Source: a virus (Duplodnaviria > Caudoviricetes). From it: a stretch of DNA of 64,000 nucleotides. Below, in pieces: positions 12,322 to 59,723 of the stretch. The notes under the pieces are model-generated. The model saw only the letters and a program-made list of their open reading frames with translations. It was not told where the DNA came from and ran no database searches. Positions within the stretch are counted from its first letter, which is position 1, and the number at the start of each line of letters is the position of its first letter. The position numbers and the translations under genes were made by a program. Where the stretch lies: positions 1-64,000 of IMG/VR virus record IMGVR_UViG_2920951204_000001. One strand, given 5' to 3'.

Positions 12322-12870
12322 CTATCGAAGATAATTCTTTAAGAAATATTCAAAATACTCTCTGATAAACAGTCCTGAATATTGATTGTTTGGCATAAAC
12401 ATAATTGGAATATTATATTTAAACCAAAAGCTGTGTATTGATGCAATGAAAGATTTCCGATTATATTTTGTATCATAATTTCCTGTTGCAATATCTTCAT
12501 AAGAAGCATTTTCAATTAACAGAACTTTTGTTTTAGGTGCAAGACATAATTCTTTTTCAAATCTATCACGCTCTTTTGTCAGATTACCACTTATCTCTTC
12601 AAGACTTGCTTTTCTCTCAATGACACATGAATTTGTAAAATACAAATCACGAAGTATTCCAAGTTTTTCATTAGCTGGGATCATGAATGAATAATCACCA
12701 TAGCTTAAAGCTTTCTTTTTATATTTAATTTCTTTTCTATCAAAATAATCCGTAATGTGAGAATTGATTTTTTCTCTTGTATCAACAAGAATTACAATAG
12801 AAGATATTAGTTCTTCCATTTCCTTATCTGTGTACTTATATTTGTTAAATATCGTCTTCGTCCTCCTCAA
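12322..12870 (-). CDS. ERCC4/XPF-family nuclease
   Basis: VDTRE, GDY, IERKASLEE motifs. Confidence 0.9.
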   Translation of the reverse strand: MRRTKTIFNKYKYTDKEMEELISSIVILVDTREKINSHITDYFDRKEIKYKKKALSYGDYSFMIPANEKLGILRDLYFTNSCVIERKASLEEISGNLTKERDRFEKELCLAPKTKVLLIENASYEDIATGNYDTKYNRKSFIASIHSFWFKYNIPIMFMPNNQYSGLFIREYFEYFLKNYLR

Positions 12871-14878
12871 TATCGTTTTTTATTACAAATTTACTCAACC
12901 AAAATTCAAATTTATCAGGTACTTCTTTATAAATTTTCTTACCTGTAACTGGATTTATTTCACCAGTTGGTTCTTTTTTATTCTTTTTTTCAAGGGAAAT
13001 AATATATAGAATAGTACCTAAATCAAATGGATTTCGGTTATACTGACTTGTCCACATTTTTACTTCTCGTGTTTTACCACTATAGATTTCAAAAAGATGG
13101 ACATTTACAATAGATTTTTTAATATCAAGTTCAGAAACATAATATAGACGTTTACTTACTTTAGAATCCGAGTCACTGACAATACCAAGAACTTCTCTTT
13201 GATTATCAAGTCTTTCCTTTAAAGTTAATTCTCTATAAGGAATTTTAGAAATCAATTCTTTAATAATTTGTTCAGAGTCAAGTTTATTAAATTGTTTGGC
13301 TGTCTCATTTCCATGTTTTATAAGTATATCAAATGGAATATTATTCTTTTCAGCTTTATCTTTGGAGATCTGCTTTGCACCATTTAACAAATCATATAAT
13401 CTTGCAATCTCAAGTAAAGTATTTACATCACCATATTTCTTAAAATAATTGATTCTAATAAGTTTATTTACAATAGTCTTATTAATTGAATTTGAAAATA
13501 GTGCAGTTAATACATCAGTAAATGTTTTATACTTCGACTGTCCTAATTCATAAAGAGTATCAACAACCCCTTCACCAAAGCCTTTTACACTTGACAAATT
13601 TGGATATATTAATTTATTCTCTTCATTAATTGTCACTTTTCTATTATCTGCACCAAATTCATAATCGCCTAGTTTATATCCCCAAAATTTAATTGCTTCT
13701 TTAACAAGAGCGTCTATCTTATCCTTTTTATTCTTTTCCTGATAATGATTGATTGCTACTTCATAAAATGTTTTAGTATGATGTGCTTTAAACCATGCTT
13801 GATAGGCAGAATCTCCACCCATTGAATAGGCATGTGGAGAATTAAATGCGTATGATCCAGAAGACTCTATTACATTCCAAACATTATTAAAATTATCTGT
13901 CTTGCCGATTTCTGCTTTCCAACCTTCTATTAATCGTTCCTGTAATTCTTTTAACATTTCAGGATGTAATTTATATTTCTTTTTTGAAATATTTTTAATA
14001 ACTCCATATGTTTCAGCCATTTTCAATTCCAAGAATGACAATACTTTCATAATAGATTCCTGATAAATCATGAAATGTGCAGTATCAAATAATAAATCAT
14101 CAATCTTTTTTTCGCCTGTAGTATATGGTTCACGATTCAAGAATGTACTAAGTAATGACGCAAAGCCTGGTCGAATTGCTGCAATGAAACTGCTTAACTC
14201 TGCTAGATTTTGCGGTTTATACTTCTTCACTCGATTAGTGGTCGCTTCTTTCTCACACTGATTGACACAACATGTAATACCATTTGCATAAATATCCCAT
14301 GTTTTTTTATCACCATCAATCATATGTCTTAGTTCATCAAATGTCGGAACTTCCATGCCAATGCTATGGAAGAATTTATATGTAAGATAAACACTATCTA
14401 CAATAAGAAAATCCTCTTTTACATATCCGAATTCATCAAGATAACCACCTTCAATAGCTGCACATACTGTTCTTTTGCCAGTTGATTCAGACACGGCACT
14501 TATCAGCCCTACTTCTCTTCGTATATCACCATCAAAAATAAAATGTCCACAAGCATGTACTTTTAAGTTAATAGTAATACCTTGATATTCATTACTTTGT
14601 TTGAATAAAGAGATATATTCTTCTGGTATGTAATCTTCAACATGAATATCCTCTTTTTCATCATCATCGGCATATTTCAAAGCTTTGTTATATTCATCAA
14701 GATATTTTGAAATCTGATTGGCATCTTCAGGTTTAACATCATTTGCACCTGCGTATAACTGCCATGCTGCTTTTTCTTTTAATTTTTCTATTGCCATCAA
14801 AGGATAACAACCATGTTCACCAAGTAATTTCCTTGCTGCTTTAACAAATGGTTCTTGTGTGGCAACATTTAGGTCAAT
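12845..14878 (-). CDS. dnaE: DNA polymerase III alpha (family C), exon 2
   Basis: Frame opens at 14878 with IDLN; HACG, KEDFL, AAIRPG, IYQE, YAFNSPHAYS motifs. Confidence 0.93.
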   Translation of the reverse strand: MDLNVATQEPFVKAARKLLGEHGCYPLMAIEKLKEKAAWQLYAGANDVKPEDANQISKYLDEYNKALKYADDDEKEDIHVEDYIPEEYISLFKQSNEYQGITINLKVHACGHFIFDGDIRREVGLISAVSESTGKRTVCAAIEGGYLDEFGYVKEDFLIVDSVYLTYKFFHSIGMEVPTFDELRHMIDGDKKTWDIYANGITCCVNQCEKEATTNRVKKYKPQNLAELSSFIAAIRPGFASLLSTFLNREPYTTGEKKIDDLLFDTAHFMIYQESIMKVLSFLELKMAETYGVIKNISKKKYKLHPEMLKELQERLIEGWKAEIGKTDNFNNVWNVIESSGSYAFNSPHAYSMGGDSAYQAWFKAHHTKTFYEVAINHYQEKNKKDKIDALVKEAIKFWGYKLGDYEFGADNRKVTINEENKLIYPNLSSVKGFGEGVVDTLYELGQSKYKTFTDVLTALFSNSINKTIVNKLIRINYFKKYGDVNTLLEIARLYDLLNGAKQISKDKAEKNNIPFDILIKHGNETAKQFNKLDSEQIIKELISKIPYRELTLKERLDNQREVLGIVSDSDSKVSKRLYYVSELDIKKSIVNVHLFEIYSGKTREVKMWTSQYNRNPFDLGTILYIISLEKKNKKEPTGEINPVTGKKIYKEVPDKFEFWLSKFVIKNDIEEDEDDI

Positions 14879-16022
14879 CCTTTATACCCTCGGTTTCCCG
14901 ATATTTATTAGGGGAGTAGACTATACCATAATCGTTGATATCATCTCGGATTCCCATTGGTAGTCGTTGCAAGCTTCCCATATTCTTTATGAACTTAGGG
15001 CTATCTCTCAGGATTATCCAATCCTTATTATTGTTACCATACCACTTTGATTAGAAGTGCCACATTTCGATTTCTCTAATGCTTGGTAAATAAGGCTTTA
15101 GAACTTCCCCTGATATTCTGGGTTTTCTATATATATCACTATATATAGCGACTTTATAACAATACATATTTAACATCATTAACTAAAAATTCTTTTTGTT
15201 TTAAAAATTCATCTAATTCTCTCGTTGTTATTTTCAACAAAGGATATAATATTTTTTTCATTTCATATTTAAGATAAAATTTTTTATTTGTCAAATCAGC
15301 ATAAATTTTCTTGCCTTTATAACATTCACATAAATATTCAAATTGATGTTCTTGTAAATATTTATATATTTCTTCATTATATAACGTAAAATGATAATTA
15401 TTTGCAACATTTGCTTTATCTTTTAGACATCTACTTATTGAAGATTGATTTTTACAACCACACGCCTTACATGTGTCCTTGATTGTATTATAAATTTGCA
15501 AATTTTCTACACAAATTATCTTCTTAGAATTTGGATTATTTTCATTTAAATATAAACCTTTTTTCTTAGCTGATAAATTTTTCTTCATCTCATTTGTTCA
15601 TCTATGACCATAATTAGGATTATTTTTACCAGATACTATTTTGCTTATCTTTTTCTTATATTCATCACTGGGCGTCCAATTTTTAATTCCACTTCCACCC
15701 TTTGTTAAATTAAAACCATTCTTGTATGTATCTAATTTTGTTATCCAATATATTTCTTTATCATCTAAGTCTTTTTGATTGCATTGTTCCAATATATAAA
15801 ATTTAAAATTATCCAATCCATACTTATTATAACTGCGTTGTAAATATTTATTATCATGTTCATTTCTTTTTAGTTCATTAATATGATGCCTCCATCGGTC
15901 TTCTATGTTTACACTTTGACCAATGTATTTTTTATTATTTATTATATTTTCTATACAATATATTCCTGTAATTTACAATCTCCTTTCTTTGATGTATATA
16001 ATATGTATTGTTTTTATTGCTA
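14879..16022 (-). ncRNA. Group I intron (1144 nt) in dnaE carrying a GIY-YIG ORF
   Basis: Removal restores MPD|IDLN; exon ends in U, intron ends in G; P1 CGAU pairs with GUCG (~15149-15152); P7 GACUA (~14961-14965) with UAGUC (~14919-14923). Confidence 0.92.
15154..15972 (-). pseudogene. GIY-YIG homing endonuclease with in-frame TGA
   Basis: AAGGAG SD, ATT start, ITGIYCIEN...KYIGQS..RW; NUMOD-like repeats; TGA at 15598-15600 in NYGHR*TNEMKK, frame continues. Confidence 0.88.
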
Positions 16023-17318
16023 ATCGGGCATCTGACCTGCTAACACACGTTCCTTAGTTAAGAATCTTTCAGGATAAATTGGAATATCAGCATTGAATCT
16101 ATCAACGGTTGTTAATCCTAAAAGTTTATTTGTAATGAATGAAGCCGCACTACCTCTTGATGTAGTTGTTAAAATACCACCTTCATTTTGGATTGCATCA
16201 TCTACAATAGCTTTACTTGTCAAGAAATAATCAACAACCCCAGCTTCCATAACTTGTTTTGCTTCATATCTAATTCCATCTGCTTTTTCTTTAGACTTTT
16301 CCTTTTCTTTAGCATATGCTTTATTTAAAGTATTTTTGTAGATTTTACATTTTTCTTTATATGTTTTATTCTTATAAACACTGGGAATCTTAAATTTTCT
16401 ATCAAGAACAATTTCTTCACATTCTGTCACAAAAACATTTGTATTCATAATTGCTCTATATATTTCTTCTCTGTTTAAAACACCTTGTTCTTCAAATCTT
16501 TTAATTACTGTTTGAGTGTCAGGATAATCAAGATACCATCCTTCCTCGTCAGGATAATTAATATTCTTATATTTAAGAATCTGATCACGCTTGATTGAAT
16601 TCTCATCTTTTACATAATGACTATCAAGACCACAAATAATCTGGATATTATGCTCTTTTGCAATTCTTAATATCTTTTTATTCAATTCCTTTTGTTTGTC
16701 TGTATTATGATACTGCACTTCTAAAAAGAAATTGTCACCAAAATATTTATGTACTTTTAACCATATATCTTCTGCATTCTCATAATTCCATCCAGCAACA
16801 CAAGCAGATGTTACAATCACGTTATCTTTAGGAATATTAAATAGTAACTCCAAATCAATACGTGGCTTATAATAATATCCGTCTATATTAGCCATTGATA
16901 AAGCAAAATTAATATCTCCACGACCTTCAGCATTTTTAGCTGCAATAATCATATGGCAATTTGCTCTATCTTTCTCTTTCCTATCTTTTACCCAATAAAC
17001 TTCAGAAGAATGAATATATTTCAGATGTTCACTCTCTGCGACCTTATATACTTGAAACTGATTGCCTTGCGAACCATGTTCACCAGAATATAAACATTTT
17101 GCACCAAATTCATGAATTCTTTCTGCATATGCATTAATAGATTCAGCACAATCTGGTGTAGATGTATTACTAAAATCTTTATGACAATGATAGTTTTCAA
17201 GATATAGATTCTTTTCATATTCTTCTGGTGAATATGGAAATTTAAATGTAAGAGTAGGAATTATTTTTTTTATTAATTCAATGTCCGAAATATCAAGCCA
17301 CCTCCTTAATCTCATCAC
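16023..17318 (-). CDS. dnaE: DNA polymerase III alpha, exon 1 (PHP domain)
   Basis: YHCH, EHG, KPRID, DSHY, SRGSAAS, ERFL...MPD; probable ATT start at 17291. Confidence 0.93.
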
Positions 17319-25212: not shown

Positions 25213-25434
25213 CTATTTCTTCACTGTTACATTGAAAACTGACCTTAAAATACAGATAATCAACCAAATACCAGTTGCAATAGACCATTTAAATGTTAAA
25301 CCAAAGCACATTGTAATAAGTTTGATTATTCCACATGTAACAATCCAACTAAGTCCATAGCATACAGCTAAAATTGTAATGACAATAACTGCTGTTACTC
25401 CACCTTTTGCTAATTTTTCTTTTAAATTACTCAT
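25213..25434 (-). CDS. Small membrane protein
   Basis: Hydrophobic segments; SD. Confidence 0.65.
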   Translation of the reverse strand: MSNLKEKLAKGGVTAVIVITILAVCYGLSWIVTCGIIKLITMCFGLTFKWSIATGIWLIICILRSVFNVTVKK

Positions 25435-25448
25435 ATGTATATTCTCCT

Positions 25449-25709
25449 TTACGCTTCAAAATTGAACTCATCAGACGAAATTTTGTTGTTAATAATCTTC
25501 TGATAAATGTCTACATACATCTCATCTTTATCTCTGTTATAAGCAACTTCTGCATATTTGTTACCCATTGGCTGTCCCCAAATAGTACACTTCTTATAAC
25601 CCAACTCATGTGCAAACCACACAAGATCTAACTGGTCAATATTGATGTTTTCACTCAATGTCTGAATCACTGCATTCTTTGCAGCTTTTTCAAATTCGTA
25701 ACTTGTCAT
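25449..25709 (-). CDS. Conserved phage protein (DUF6275-like)
   Basis: LVWF...KYAEVAYNRDKDEMYVDIYQK pattern. Confidence 0.6.
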   Translation of the reverse strand: MTSYEFEKAAKNAVIQTLSENINIDQLDLVWFAHELGYKKCTIWGQPMGNKYAEVAYNRDKDEMYVDIYQKIINNKISSDEFNFEA

Positions 25710-25766
25710 TTATAATTACCTCCACTTTAATAATCTTCACAAGAAATCGAAAATTCATCGGCTTTT

Positions 25767-27068
25767 TTAAATATTATTAGCCGTTTGTAATGGTATATTC
25801 ACGACTACTGGATGTGAACCTGCATCCACTATCCCATTGGCAAAAGCCTTTGGGAATACCTTCTTCATTATCTGATAACTTCCATTTACGTCTGCATTAA
25901 TATATTCTCCTTTCTCGCTCTGAAATAACCCTCTATGAATTCGTCTATCTTTATTGTAATTTTTCTCAATTGGCTCTTCACCATCAAGAAAAGATGTACC
26001 ACTTGTATAACTTTCATTTGTTCTAATGAACTTAATTCCTTCATTCTCGCATTTATATTCAAGTCTTTGTACAATACTTAAATATGGAATAGATACAAAT
26101 TTCTGATTGACTCTTTTACCCATATCAGTTTCTTGTTTCCATCCTGAGTTATAACCACAAACCAATGTGTCAATATCATTACACTTGCAAAAATCTACTA
26201 CCATCTTTGTTGATTTCTGAATATAGTCATCTACTTGATTATTTCTTTTAGTTGTAAATCTTTGCATCTCATTTGACCAATCGCTATCATTTCTCAGCTT
26301 TAATGCCGATCTTATTTCTGAAATCTTCTTATTATAATACTGATTGATTGACTTCAATGGTTTTCCATTTATTATAATTGGATTTACACCACAGTTTGTT
26401 GTGATGGTCATCAAATTATCGACACCTAAGTCAATTGCAGCAATACTCTTTGAATCTATATCCTTTGTTTCAGGAACTTCTATTTGGTAAACTACTTCCA
26501 TAATATATTCATTACCTTTTGGGACAAATCGAAGCTGTACTAATTTAGAATCATTTGGAATTTTTGTTCTGAAAATATTATTCATGATTTTAAGAGGTGT
26601 CCAACTAAAGTAAATATATCCATCAACAATTTTGAATTTGATATTATCTAATCCAAGTTCAAATCGCCCATCTTCTTTAGGAAGATACTTCGGTAACTTC
26701 GGTCTGCCAAGATATTTAGATGGATTCTTTGAATAGTCCTTAATAGCTGCGAAGAACGACTTCCAGTTCTTATCTAATTTTCTCAAAGTAGCTTGTCCTA
26801 CATTGCTTCCAATACATTTATAACAATCAGATTCTTTACATAATTGAAATAATTCATTGTATTGAATCCAACGAGCATCCTCAACTAATCCTTGTTCTTT
26901 TTGTTTTGAAGTTTCTATAAATTCCTGCCGAATTATGTAATTTCCATAATTATATAAGTTTTTAGATTTCCAACATAAATCATCTATAATTTTGAACAGT
27001 TTATCGTCTTTATTATTTTTCTTACTTTTCTTTATTCGATGTTGTTCTACTCTATTTACTTTCTTCAT
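25767..27068 (-). CDS. tnpB: TnpB-family RNA-guided nuclease, adjacent to CRISPR mini-array
   Basis: SKNLYN, AIDLGVDN (RuvC-I), NESYTS, NADVNG (RuvC-III); no Zn finger; no IS-end hairpins seen. Confidence 0.92.
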   Translation of the reverse strand: MKKVNRVEQHRIKKSKKNNKDDKLFKIIDDLCWKSKNLYNYGNYIIRQEFIETSKQKEQGLVEDARWIQYNELFQLCKESDCYKCIGSNVGQATLRKLDKNWKSFFAAIKDYSKNPSKYLGRPKLPKYLPKEDGRFELGLDNIKFKIVDGYIYFSWTPLKIMNNIFRTKIPNDSKLVQLRFVPKGNEYIMEVVYQIEVPETKDIDSKSIAAIDLGVDNLMTITTNCGVNPIIINGKPLKSINQYYNKKISEIRSALKLRNDSDWSNEMQRFTTKRNNQVDDYIQKSTKMVVDFCKCNDIDTLVCGYNSGWKQETDMGKRVNQKFVSIPYLSIVQRLEYKCENEGIKFIRTNESYTSGTSFLDGEEPIEKNYNKDRRIHRGLFQSEKGEYINADVNGSYQIMKKVFPKAFANGIVDAGSHPVVVNIPLQTANNI

Positions 27069-27078
27069 AAGTTCTCCT

Positions 27079-27240
27079 TAAATTAACATGGTTCTAAAAT
27101 ATATATATAATTCTCCTTCTTCTATCTGAGGTTTATTACCATATAAATTAACATAGTTCTAAAACAGATTATTTAATCCCCTTCAACTGTGCTTTGAGGT
27201 TTATTACCTTGTAAATTAACATGATTCTAAAACCTCAAAT
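27079..27240 (-). CRISPR. Type II-A-like mini-array (2 full and 1 partial repeat, 2 spacers)
   Basis: 35-nt repeats GTTTTAGAATCATGTTAATTTACAAGGTAATAAAC (27233-27199) and GTTTTAGAACTATGTTAATTTATATGGTAATAAAC (27165-27131); partial 27100-27079; spacers 33 and 30 nt; ATTTGAG at 27240-27234. Confidence 0.8.
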
Positions 27241-27410
27241 ATGTATTCGTAATTTACTTGGTATTCTTGAAGTTCTAAGTTCAATGGGCGAAACCCACAC
27301 CCACTATCCAATTGATTTCACTTTTGGAATACTTGTTATAGGATAAACTGGCTTGAATTAGCCAAATAGATTTGTTAAAATAGAACAAATATAGTTTATC
27401 CTATATTTTA
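27241..27410 (-). ncRNA. Putative structured RNA (omega-RNA-like scaffold plus upstream multi-stem)
   Basis: 13-bp inverted repeat 27337-27349/27393-27405 enclosing two hairpins; 27260-27335 resembles the tnpB 3' end with compensatory changes. Confidence 0.6.
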
Positions 27411-27475
27411 TTCTCCGTAGAGCAGATTGTTAGGTCGCCAAACTTGTGCAATCTGTTCTACTGTTTTTATATTCT

Positions 27476-27859
27476 CTACTTTTCAGAAGATTTCTTTAAA
27501 TCTGTTAATGCATCATCTAAATCCTTAACTGTCTGAATAGCTTCCTTCATACTATTCATACCAGCAATAGCACTTGAAAAAGCCTTAATACTTTCAAATT
27601 CCATCTCTGAAATAGTTTTTAAAACATCAACTAATTTCATATCACCAATTCCAGATACCTTTGCTGCATTTTCGATTGTCTCTTCTTCATTTACAAGTAA
27701 ATCAATAAACTGTCTTACCTTATTATTCTCCATTTCTTCAATCTCCTTTATATGTTCTTTTATTTTTTGTTTCCCTACATGACTTGGATAGCCAGAGTAC
27801 GAAAGTGCTTGATTTATCCACCATAATGTCTGTTCATCTACATCATCATATTTCTTCAT
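27476..27859 (-). CDS. Hypothetical protein
   Basis: Lies in the same repeat-bounded unit as tnpB and the array. Confidence 0.6.
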   Translation of the reverse strand: MKKYDDVDEQTLWWINQALSYSGYPSHVGKQKIKEHIKEIEEMENNKVRQFIDLLVNEEETIENAAKVSGIGDMKLVDVLKTISEMEFESIKAFSSAIAGMNSMKEAIQTVKDLDDALTDLKKSSEK

Positions 27860-27944
27860 CTCTTCGACTAAATTTCCGATATATCACACCTCATTTCTAC
27901 AGTCAAATATCTTCCAAGGAAACCGATATTTCTTGTCCATTTTG

Positions 27945-27991
27945 TTACTATATATAGTAGTTTTAATTTATATAACCACTATATATAGCGT
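27945..27991. promoter_or_regulatory. Tandem NrdR-box-like pair
   Basis: ACTATATATAGT at 27947 and ACTATATATAGC at 27978, 31 bp apart. Confidence 0.65.
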
Positions 27992-28026
27992 ACTATTTTT
28001 TGACTTTTCTATATATTGTTATTCTC

Positions 28027-28410
28027 TTATTCCCAATCGTAAGCAATGTAATATCCTTCATCAGATAAATGTTTGAACCATTCAAATCTACTTCTCATAT
28101 CAATATTATCAACTTCCTTATTACTCAAAATTTTTTCACAATATTTTGACATGTCGATTGGTTCAATGAGTTTTAATTTATAATCCTTTGAGTCGATCCA
28201 TTCCTCGTTTGGTAATTTAGGGAACGGAACACCAATCGTCTTTTCAAACAATTCTCTTACCAAACTTACATTATAATAAGAATGAGATGTAGAATCGCAG
28301 TCGATATATTTAATTGAGTATTCATCATAATAACAATGTCCAAACGCCTGATATGTTTCACCAGAATCTAATATTTTATAATCTTTAAACCATCTAAATC
28401 CTAAGCCCAT
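28027..28410 (-). CDS. Hypothetical protein
   Basis: SD AGGAGG; single gene between sites 27917 and 28452. Confidence 0.7.
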
Positions 28411-58281: not shown

Positions 58282-58340
58282 ATTTTCTCCTTTTCATATA
58301 ATGAAATCGTCAATTCATGGTATTTTTAAATACCTTTACA

Positions 58341-59555
58341 TTACGCTCTCAGCATAGCCAAGTTAATAATTGTTGGGTGTGAACCTGCACCCTCTATTCC
58401 TTTGCTAAACGCATCAGGAATTACCTTCTTTAATATTTGATATGCTCCATTTACATCTGCATTTATCTTCTTTCCGCAATCTGCAATGAATAATCCTCTA
58501 TGAACTCTGCGTTCCTTATTATAATTCTCTTTTACAGGATCTTCATTATCAAGAAATGATGTTCCAGAAGTACATGCTTCCTCATTTTCTATAAATCTAA
58601 TTCCATTATTCTCACATTTATATGCAAGCATCTGGATAAATAGTTCATAAGGAATATAAGTAAAATTCTGCATACCTTGTTTCTTTTGTTTCCATTCATC
58701 GTTGTGTCCTACAATCAATGTGTCAATTTCATATAAGACACACCAATCAACTACATACTTACTTATACAATGCATCTGATATTTAATCATTTCATATCGC
58801 TTGTCTGTAAGTTTCTGTAACTTGTTCGACCAATCTTTTCCGTTGACTTTCTTCAACTCTGACTGAATATTTGCTTTCTGTTTATTGTAAAACCGATTAA
58901 TTGACTTAATAACTCCACCTTTAACAGCTATTGGATTTTCACCAATGTTGTTTACCATAGTTATGAAATTATCAACTCCAATATCAATGGCAGCTACTCT
59001 TTCAGAAGTTTCTGAAATGTCTGGCACTTCGATTTCATAGACGATTTCCATTACATACTTTTTACATCTAGGAATGAATCTGCATTGTAATATTCTTTCT
59101 TGTGCATTTGTCTTAAACATATTGTTGTATGGTTTAAATGGCTTCCATGCAAAATATACATATCCATCTTTCAATTTCACTTTGTTGCTATCAAGAGATA
59201 GTAAGAATCTTCCGTCTTTATCTTTATATTTTGGAATCTTTGGTCTACCTAAATATTTACTAGGATTTTTCTTCCAATCCTTAATTGCCTTGAAAAATGC
59301 TTTCCAATTTTTATCAAGTATCCTTAAAGTTCCTTGACCTGTATTATTTCCAATATCTTTGTATGGCTCTGACTCTTTTACAAGTTGAAATAATTGATTA
59401 TATTTAATCCAGTTTCCATTATTTATAAATTCTTGACGAATAATATAATTCGCATAGTTGTATAAATTCTTTGACTTGAAACACATTTCATCAACAAATT
59501 TATAAAAATCAGTTCCATACTTTATATTATGCTGTTCACATCTTGTTATTTTCGT
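58341..59555 (-). CDS. tnpB: TnpB-family nuclease, same clade as 25767-27068; non-ATG start
   Basis: Frame extends to ACG-KITRCEQHNIK after AAGGAG; AIDIGVDN, EEACTS, NADVNG. Confidence 0.9.
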   Translation of the reverse strand, partial: TKITRCEQHNIKYGTDFYKFVDEMCFKSKNLYNYANYIIRQEFINNGNWIKYNQLFQLVKESEPYKDIGNNTGQGTLRILDKNWKAFFKAIKDWKKNPSKYLGRPKIPKYKDKDGRFLLSLDSNKVKLKDGYVYFAWKPFKPYNNMFKTNAQERILQCRFIPRCKKYVMEIVYEIEVPDISETSERVAAIDIGVDNFITMVNNIGENPIAVKGGVIKSINRFYNKQKANIQSELKKVNGKDWSNKLQKLTDKRYEMIKYQMHCISKYVVDWCVLYEIDTLIVGHNDEWKQKKQGMQNFTYIPYELFIQMLAYKCENNGIRFIENEEACTSGTSFLDNEDPVKENYNKERRVHRGLFIADCGKKINADVNGAYQILKKVIPDAFSKGIEGAGSHPTIINLAMLRA

Positions 59556-59723
59556 ATCATATCATCTCCTTTCCATAGAAATTATATTGATAACGTTCTA
59601 TAGAGTTATTCTCTCTTCTGACCGCACATTATCAAGAGCTTCGCATCTCCTTCACGGTAACTGTTCAAGGCAGTCAACCCTTTATTCAGTTGTCAATGTT
59701 CAACTGTAATAGGAATTTTCGAG

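Follow-up and report, generated by a model that had tools for sequence, protein, structure and literature searches.

The 64,000-nt stretch of phage DNA analysed here (positions 1 to 64,000 of the IMG/VR virus record IMGVR_UViG_2920951204_000001, Caudoviricetes; hereafter the window) carries on its minus strand a 1.7-kb cassette, in which a gene for a 433-aa TnpB protein is preceded by a leader and a very short array of clustered regularly interspaced short palindromic repeats (CRISPR). The window belongs to a prophage of ~145 kb, which occupies about 50-195 kb on a contig of 340 kb and has host DNA on both sides, as judged by GC content. Read in the direction of tnpB, the cassette consists of an end hairpin, a free-standing scaffold resembling an omegaRNA, an anti-repeat, two full repeats each followed by a spacer, a third repeat cut short and joined to the ribosome-binding site (RBS) of tnpB, the gene itself and a right end (Table 1). 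A mini-array ahead of tnpB, with a 22-nt partial repeat running into the Shine-Dalgarno sequence, had been noted in a preliminary description of the locus and was confirmed by the coordinates and by a 22-nt repeat probe, which had three matches in the window (0.04 expected) and no further match anywhere in the 2.93-Mb genome. The 35-nt repeat and the 33- and 30-nt spacers given in that description are corrected here to a 36-nt repeat ending AAACC and spacers of 32 and 29 nt, the repeat end being set at AAACC because a perfect protospacer in another phage begins after that C. Repeat 2 was also matched by the Rfam family CRISPR-DR22, below threshold (32 bits, E 5e-4). As described before, the cassette has no cas genes: cas9, cas1, cas2 and csn2 were not found in it, Cas9 was not found in five phage records (two rated at least 97% complete), and Cas1 was not found in a set of five that shares some records with the first and in which each is rated at least 97% complete.

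Table 1. Features of the tnpB cassette in the window, followed by the places in the host genome matched by spacers of the host's own array
Feature	Position	Strand	Remarks
Whole mobile cassette (end hairpin, scaffold, array, tnpB, right end)	27467-25741	minus	1.7 kb
Left-end imperfect 13-bp hairpin, GTAGAACAGATTG / CAATCTGCTCTAC	27461-27449 / 27429-27417	minus	read from sequence
Perfect 13-bp stem before the scaffold	27405-27393 / 27349-27337	minus	inverted-repeat search; equivalent hairpin before the scaffold in every clade
Free-standing omegaRNA-like scaffold (putative tracr-like part), two stems	27336-27262	minus	98.7 bits with covariance model
Anti-repeat TACCAAGTAAATTA	27263-27250	minus	downstream of scaffold; complementary to repeat positions ~17-30; inverted-repeat search
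Leader end ATTTGAG	27240-27234	minus	same as end of host and many bacterial type II-A leaders
Repeat 1 (R1), 36 nt	27233-27198	minus	
Spacer 1, 32 nt	27197-27166	minus	first spacer in two metagenome cassette copies too; protospacer not found
Repeat 2 (R2), 36 nt	27165-27130	minus	31/36 identity to repeat 1
Spacer 2, 29 nt	27129-27101	minus	best outside match 25/29, in a same-family genome
Terminal repeat, first 22 nt only, G1->A	27100-27079	minus	joined to tnpB RBS; same fusion in all clades
AGGAG (tnpB RBS)	27078-27074	minus	then ATG at 27068
tnpB, 433 aa	27068-25767	minus	RNA-guided nuclease family (predicted), rearranged RuvC-II type
Canonical omegaRNA scaffold inside 3′ end of tnpB	25863-25786	minus	homologous to leader scaffold
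Right end: hairpin GGCT..AGCC and end motif TGAATTTTCGATTTCTT (25757-25741)	25785-25741	minus	
Host self-targets	C3:182961-182990, C3:133865-133836, C1:371272-371301		two of three inside the ~145-kb prophage

The protein was recognised by the NCBIfam model guided_TnpB (NF040570) with 187 bits against a cutoff of 100 and by Pfam as OrfB_IS605 with a TNB domain (73.6 and 38.5 bits; PF01385+PF07282), while the Cas12f2 model gave 34 bits against a cutoff of 450 and phmmer found no match among PDB sequences. The AF2 model (pLDDT 83) was closest by Foldseek to the solved folds of AsCas12f (TM 0.61), ISDra2 TnpB (TM 0.60/0.69) and OsCas12f (TM ~0.6); a C4 zinc finger is absent. Of the RuvC acidic residues, which had been described as kept, the RuvC-I Asp (D213) and the RuvC-III Asp (D393, in NADVN) are indeed invariant, but the canonical RuvC-II Glu is Gly (G305) family-wide and E352 further downstream is invariant instead (14 sequences, 41-100% identity). 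A ‘rearranged RuvC-II’ site (RIIr), with a Glu-to-Gly change and a compensating glutamate, has been reported and inferred to be active in TnpB, with virus-specific branches noted (PMC10691335), and the window TnpB matches this type, its catalysis being predicted. The public annotation of the protein is just ‘endonuclease [Caudoviricetes sp.]’. In the abundant 74%-identity clade (L305-L308) the annotated 445-aa product begins at an ATG within a repeat, upstream of position 701, and this public gene call is probably over-extended at the N-terminus, masking part of the array.

Analysis of 13 leaders from several clades by RNAalifold revealed two stems with 16 pairs, five of which show double compensatory changes. 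A covariance model built from the leader scaffolds alone (model R1) had a sole other significant match in the 64 kb, at the 3′ end of tnpB (33.5 bits, E 4e-6; next best 16). Applied to 68 loci, the model matched the last ~80 nt of tnpB, on the sense strand, in ~40 relatives of 40-98% identity, array-less ones included, and the upstream scaffold copy was restricted to array-bearing clades. By these covariance matches, the leader holds a second copy of the omegaRNA scaffold proper to this TnpB family. Simple alignment of the leader to the tnpB 3′ end, which scored 42 against a background of up to 43 elsewhere in the window, was rejected and superseded by the covariance model. An extra solo match of the model (33.7 bits) lies in intergenic DNA at L015:5659-5736, ~1.4 kb downstream of tnpB.

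The anti-repeat that follows the scaffold was assessed by duplex energies. The duplex between the leader and the 3′ half of the repeat, of 12-17 bp and -7.7 to -12.8 kcal/mol, is kept in eight clades, and its energy was reached by at most 6% of shuffles in seven of the eight. RNAalifold on the 13 leaders did not call this duplex because indels shift the register. Since the clades resemble one another in the 3′ half of the repeat, the matrix of cognate versus non-cognate leader:repeat energies showed no clear diagonal. Folding the leader unit as a single sequence gave no significant result (z -1.3).

The same arrangement is found in many large phages of the gut. The repeat probe recovered eight IMG/VR contigs with the same conserved leader and truncated last repeat and with other spacers, and further cassettes were gathered by TnpB-based searches, the TnpB clusters having hundreds of members. 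Leader, array and tnpB, with the truncated repeat fused to the RBS, recur in IMG/VR, Logan and ENA contigs at TnpB identities of 70-98%, and a relative of 59% identity (L039) has a similar layout. None of the cassettes collected had the array without tnpB and the duplicated scaffold. The TnpBs that come with an array all fall into a single clade (100/100 support), in which repeats resembling those of type II-A CRISPR arrays stand on early as well as late branches; the drifted-repeat lineages L015 (GTTATATAACAGCGG..) and L018/19 (GATTTATAACCGTG..) are nested inside it, suggesting that the II-A-like 5′ half of the repeat was lost secondarily. The 3′ half of the repeat (..TAATTTRTWKGGTAAWAAACC; ...GGTAAWAAACC) is conserved, in contrast to the drifting 5′ half, and is missing from the terminal repeat in every case. 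As far as sequence comparison can tell, the repeats co-diverge with the TnpB protein. A conserved 3′ half and a drifting 5′ half make sense for type V polarity, in which a 3′ handle is followed by the spacer, and not for Cas9, which needs the 5′ half.

Comparison of spacers over orthologous loci revealed them to be variable, with 28 distinct spacers of 29-32 nt in arrays of 0-3 spacers. In each of the steps L038 to L026, L054 to L033/L037 and L296 to L302 one leader-proximal spacer more is present, and one spacer is common to different arrays with point mutations. In L289/L290 (~470-700) a zero-spacer form was found, in which the leader ends ..ACATTTGAG and is followed by the truncated repeat and tnpB, with no full repeat. 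From these comparisons, spacers appear to have been added mostly at the leader end. The first spacer base is T in 20 of the 28 spacers, and C in 6 of 7 distinct spacers of the L033 clade.

Protospacers were found for spacers of relatives. The newest spacer of the L026 array matches at 29/29 positions G006, a tailed phage with a complete genome of 46 kb, and also G007, a relative of G006 from the same sample; the protospacer sits in a small gene next to the tape-measure gene, on its upstream side. In this array the older (second) spacer matches G007 at 24/30, and a spacer of the L015 clade, from another dataset and with a diverged repeat, matches G007 at 26/30, ~500 bp away. In all, between three and five spacers have a match in this rival phage type. 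The window's own spacers, for which such a search had been proposed together with the preliminary description, have no protospacer in the host genome or IMG/VR; GenBank phages gave chance-level matches only, metagenome contigs returned only more array copies, and among 400 same-family genomes there were two matches, at 25/29 and 23/29, whose meaning is uncertain. The L033, L034 and L025 arrays had no real protospacers in GenBank phages. Around the protospacers (three good and two weak), position +1 is T in 5/5 and position -1 is A in 4/5, and no 3′ position is constant.

We read the locus as a TnpB-derived, type V-like (‘TranC-like’) CRISPR module of large temperate Clostridia phages, not a Cas9 array, and consider it rather likely, from comparisons of sequence, that TnpB uses the array. 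In such a module the leader-array-tnpB region would be transcribed as one RNA, in which the scaffold would act in the manner of trans-activating CRISPR RNA (tracrRNA), joined covalently to the first unit and serving later units in trans, and the anti-repeat would pair with the conserved 3′ half of each repeat. TnpB would then take the spacer after each repeat as guide, in type V polarity, and cut rival phages that carry a matching sequence next to a 5′ motif. New spacers would enter at the leader end via machinery provided in trans, the most likely integrator being a host type II-A Cas1-Cas2 complex that recognises the II-A-like repeat and ATTTGAG. Three points here are inferred: binding of these RNAs and cleavage by TnpB, the guide polarity, and the identity of the spacer integrator. 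Of the readings offered in the preliminary description, the first, a transition from TnpB to a Cas12-like system, is thus the favoured one, through the linkage of array and tnpB, the variable spacers, the rival-phage targets, the scaffold with its anti-repeat and the co-evolution of repeat and protein, and the host-written spacers that formed part of it are plausible. The outcomes that the preliminary description had named as refuting it, namely spacers invariant between orthologues, a lack of protospacers and an array not linked to tnpB in relatives, did not occur.

Several observations weigh against use of the array by TnpB. Coding constraint accounts for part of the conservation of the 3′ scaffold, which lies within the open reading frame (ORF). 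The guide-adjacent sequence of the array units (..AATAAACC) is unlike the native omegaRNA end (..CGATTTCTTG), so that TnpB must accept two contexts, or one of them is vestigial. The lean of the flanks towards a 5′ motif comes from only three good and two weak protospacers, too few for certainty, and the perfect protospacer has TGG on its 3′ side. The window and L230/L231 have the proximal spacer in common and differ in the distal one, indicating that leader-end addition is not the whole story. Finally, the array part itself resembles that of a Cas9 system: the phage repeat has 26/36 identity to the host repeat and up to 30/36 to bacterial II-A repeats, with the same 36-nt length, the leader end ATTTGAG is identical between the phage cassette and II-A arrays, and what is left of the truncated last repeat is precisely the 22 nt needed by a Cas9 CRISPR RNA (crRNA).

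This resemblance was traced further. The host has a complete type II-A locus on another contig, comprising Cas9, Cas1, a 26-repeat array (G000:C10:111787-113480; repeat GTTTGAGAACCTTGTAATTTTGTAAGAGTGTAAAAC, leader ending ATTTGAG) and a tracrRNA antisense upstream of cas9. In a degenerate scan, numerous II-A arrays of Clostridia, Listeria and Romboutsia with the same leader end came up; none exceeded 30/36 identity to the phage repeat, all end ..AAAC and none has the scaffold. Among 185,579 species genomes scanned for exact matches, an array with the window-type repeat was not found. Likeness between phage and host leaders beyond ATTTGAG (TACCAAGTA[T/A]AT) is marginal (p about 0.03). Judged by these likenesses, the repeat and the end of the leader clearly descend from a type II-A array, in line with the preliminary description, which had called the repeat type II-like and ATTTGAG a II-A anchor; the II-A-like repeat, its length and the anchor make the array part look captured from, or modelled on, a II-A array.

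Phages with cas-less mini-arrays that match host repeats are a described phenomenon. Such an orphan mini-array, processed by host tracrRNA and RNase III and loaded on the host II-A Cas9 against rival phages, with TnpB a mere neighbour sharing the transcript, is to be weighed here as well. It would account for a repeat 72-83% identical to bacterial II-A repeats with the same length and leader end, for the 22 nt kept in the last repeat, for the TGG beside the perfect protospacer and for a lysogen with a complete II-A locus. The resident tracrRNA, however, does not pair with the phage repeat: its duplex with the host's own repeat reaches -20.1 kcal/mol, those with the repeats of all phage clades stay at -6 to -12, as shuffled sequences do, and Rfam tracrRNA had no match in 25300-28200. 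Species-representative genomes hold no bacterial array with this repeat, the closest being at 30/36; the lineages L015, L018/19, L022 and L039 have lost the tracr-binding 5′ half and keep their arrays, one spacer of these matching the same rival phage; and the array is always found with tnpB and the duplicated scaffold. Nor is there a constant 3′ flank, and the protospacer-adjacent motif (PAM) of the host is absent, as shown below. We therefore regard borrowing of the host Cas9, which the preliminary description had put forward as its second reading, as improbable.

The host array gave an estimate of this PAM. Three of its spacers match the host's own genome, two at 30/30 and one at 26/30 (Table 1), and the 3′ flank is NNAACT in 3/3, which is the likely PAM of the host Cas9; NNAACT was not found beside any phage-array protospacer. 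Spacer length in the host array is 30 nt in 21/25, against 29-32 in the phage arrays. Tolerance of a self-targeting spacer with the correct PAM suggests that the prophage encodes an anti-CRISPR, and the host Cas9 is probably kept silent, with the phage operating a guided nuclease of its own.

Inhibition of Cas9 also bears on an explanation in which the spacers are incidental and the array acts through RNA, either as a regulator, TnpB cutting its own 5′ untranslated region and parting the ORF from its promoter, or as an RNA anti-CRISPR decoy soaking up II-A components. The last repeat overlaps the RBS, a zero-spacer form exists in L289/290, and the lysogen tolerates Cas9 spacers with perfect match and correct PAM to this prophage, so that some Cas9 inhibition is likely; TnpB is also reported to process its own mRNA into omegaRNA (PMC10278001). 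A regulator or decoy and nothing else would, however, have no need of spacer turnover, directional addition and matches to a rival phage; pairing of the repeats with the host tracrRNA is poor, and a protein anti-CRISPR elsewhere in the 145-kb prophage is a simpler account of the self-targeting. The related third reading of the preliminary description, an RNA anti-CRISPR or Cas9-dependent control of tnpB, gained no direct support, though the lysogen does have Cas9 spacers against this prophage, and we rate regulator and decoy as more doubtful still than Cas9 borrowing.

Least likely, in our view, is a relic, that is, a TnpB element that landed beside, or recombined with, a fragment of a II-A array and now carries the remnant passively and without function. 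The arrays are tiny (0-3 spacers), repeats 1 and 2 of the window differ at five positions, some spacers are shared with point mutations, and no protospacer was found for the window's own spacers, all of which a relic would explain. Against decay stand the conservation of scaffold, anti-repeat and repeat 3′ half, with compensatory changes, in a clade spanning 70-98% protein identity, the difference in spacer content between otherwise near-identical cassettes, and the perfect matches to a co-occurring phage from the same sample.

Within the TnpB-based reading, since the phages lack Cas1, the II-A adaptation proteins of the host are obvious candidates for spacer integration, and it is plausible, given the absence of a phage Cas1, the ATTTGAG anchor and the addition at the leader end, that the host adaptation machinery writes the spacers, though the spacer lengths of 29-32 nt and the near-invariant first spacer base are unlike strict type II-A acquisition. 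The cassette may then be a natural chimera, in which a duplicated omegaRNA scaffold was joined to a captured II-A leader-repeat unit, so that host Cas9-type adaptation writes and TnpB reads; we put this forward tentatively, as a possibility with the odds against it.

The cassette is mobile or exchangeable, with TnpB-type ends, as indicated by its homology limits, its sharp junction and a shared end motif. Homology with eight IMG/VR loci ends at ~27467 and 25741, the flanks being unlike; in six loci the flanks diverge directly after the right-end motif, right after ..CGATTTCTTG, and the junction is sharp (..gagaatata/taactgtaaac.. versus ..gagaatata/AAAACAGTAGAAC.., the slash marking the junction). 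The moving unit is thus shorter than the one bounded by 25741-27934 that had been proposed, which included the upstream 127-aa gene: this gene occurs without the cassette in ~45/54 related phages, and the cassette is also found without the gene. Contrary to the earlier statement that hairpin ends of an insertion sequence are lacking, a left hairpin and a right-end motif are both present (Table 1). The left-end hairpin is kept in long-leader cassettes, and the short-leader relatives L008, L018, L019 and L022 have another hairpin at their start, directly before the scaffold. The right-end motif was also considered as a phage-wide ‘site’ and rejected, since at up to three mismatches it is restricted, within the window, to the ends of its two tnpB genes. 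Y1 TnpA was not found in five phage genomes rated at least 97% complete, a search that did not extend to serine-recombinase TnpA; tnpB-only elements are common, and a missing TnpA does not bar membership among TnpB elements.

Two further observations concern these ends. In a relative without the module, a 584-nt segment with two small ORFs (L280:2976-3559) lies between the same flanks as the cassette and closes with the same 17-nt GAATTTTCGATTTCTT motif as the TnpB cassette; it may be a footprint, or other cargo between the same ends, and movement is maybe by cassette exchange, not classical transposition. The second tnpB of the window (58301-59560, minus strand; 381 aa as called, 54% identity to the first) has no scaffold or array upstream and a similar right-end motif at 58317-58301. 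Conserved N-terminal residues of this second protein extend 5′ of the called ATG, after an in-frame TGA and with no ATG, GTG or TTG between, and the gene may be damaged or its true start may lie elsewhere than called.

The cassette lies in the replication region of a large phage, with genes for DNA ligase, a split DNA polymerase, RecJ, DnaB, RNA ligase and PAPS reductase in the window. IMG/VR relatives of this phage measure 143-192 kb, one of them with terminal repeats; megablast of the region against GenBank phages found no match, and a promoter scan gave chance-level results only. The phage DNA polymerase is encoded by two ORFs about 1.2 kb apart (16020-17318 and 12845-14800, minus strand), which match consecutive parts of one PHROG polymerase profile, and an insertion of an intron, intein or homing endonuclease between them (window 12845-17318) is possible. 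Upstream of the 127-aa gene, an 18-nt inverted repeat at 27948-27988, 89% complementary with a 5-nt loop and rich in CTATATATAG, may be a phage promoter or terminator element; a similar ACTATATATAGTG palindrome lies upstream of the cassette in L019.

Comparison with known systems places the cassette closest to published TnpB-derived modules. In two bioRxiv papers (10.1101/2025.09.28.678669 and 10.64898/2026.03.27.714800), TranC systems are described as TnpB-like effectors of ~300-600 aa with short arrays and no adaptation genes, whose guide presumably consists of a crRNA and a tracr-like scaffold that arose by splitting of an omegaRNA/reRNA; their spacers match phages, and some members, among them the phage-borne CauTranC9, belong to Caudoviricetes. 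The window family shares with these descriptions a TnpB-sized effector beside a short array with no adaptation genes, a tracr-like scaffold, phage-matching spacers and occurrence in Caudoviricetes. It is unlike them in that array and scaffold stand upstream and are fused to the RBS, the original omegaRNA scaffold at the 3′ end is kept in addition, the repeat and the end of the leader descend from II-A arrays and the RuvC-II site is rearranged; its 0-3 spacers also differ from the reported medians of 4.5-5 repeats, and its repeats from the 38-bp repeats of CauTranC9. Likened from the published descriptions, the window family appears to be of the TranC kind.

Type V-U and Cas12f systems are alike in their folds, AsCas12f and OsCas12f being among the closest solved ones, in size (433 vs 422 aa) and in the use by Cas12f of tracrRNA and crRNA with the spacer 3′ of the repeat. 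The window TnpB differs in scoring below the Cas12f2 cutoff, in its RuvC-II Glu-to-Gly change and in having no C4 zinc finger. In conserved associations of Cas12 with arrays, the array is almost always downstream of the gene (PMC10691335); here it is upstream. With the TnpB/omegaRNA systems of IS200/IS605 elements such as ISDra2, the cassette has in common the protein family, a scaffold that overlaps the ORF at its 3′ end, defined ends and a presence in several genomic settings, and to this it adds a second scaffold and an array of variable, phage-matching guides, with no Y1 TnpA in the five genomes searched.

The type II-A arrays of Streptococcus, Listeria and Lachnospiraceae resemble the phage array in their 36-nt repeat starting GTTTTAGA, in spacers of ~30 nt, in ATTTGAG and in leader-proximal addition; the cassette is unlike them in lacking cas9, cas1, cas2, csn2 and tracrRNA, in a repeat that ends AAACC not AAAAC, and in its nearly invariant first spacer base. 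Virus mini-arrays without cas genes and RNA anti-CRISPRs (solitary repeat units) are likewise phage-encoded, very short and without adjacent cas genes, with spacers against competing phages. As far as is known, these copy the host's own repeat and rely on the host effector, whereas the repeat here has 26/36 identity to that of the host, misfits the host tracrRNA and comes with its own nuclease and scaffold.

Transitions from TnpB to type V systems are reported to have taken place on about 50 occasions, and two routes are proposed, duplication of omegaRNA segments or landing by an existing array, of which the second ‘cannot be ruled out’ and was given no example (PMC10691335). The cassette appears to combine both of these routes, having a duplicated scaffold and an array of II-A descent with the ancestral 3′ omegaRNA still there. 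In sister lineages the Cas9-related half of the repeat decays and the TnpB-proximal half is kept, making the transition testable in one small element. If the chimera is real, a type V-like system would have been born by capturing the array of another CRISPR type, with a cross-type division of labour, and ancestral omegaRNA and new array would have been caught together in one 1.7-kb mobile cassette. The cassette also bears on conflict between phages, as its relatives' spacers match a co-occurring 46-kb phage, and in practical terms it offers a 433-aa putative nuclease with a natural, compact layout of tracr-like part plus array. These features make the family relevant to the origin of type V systems.

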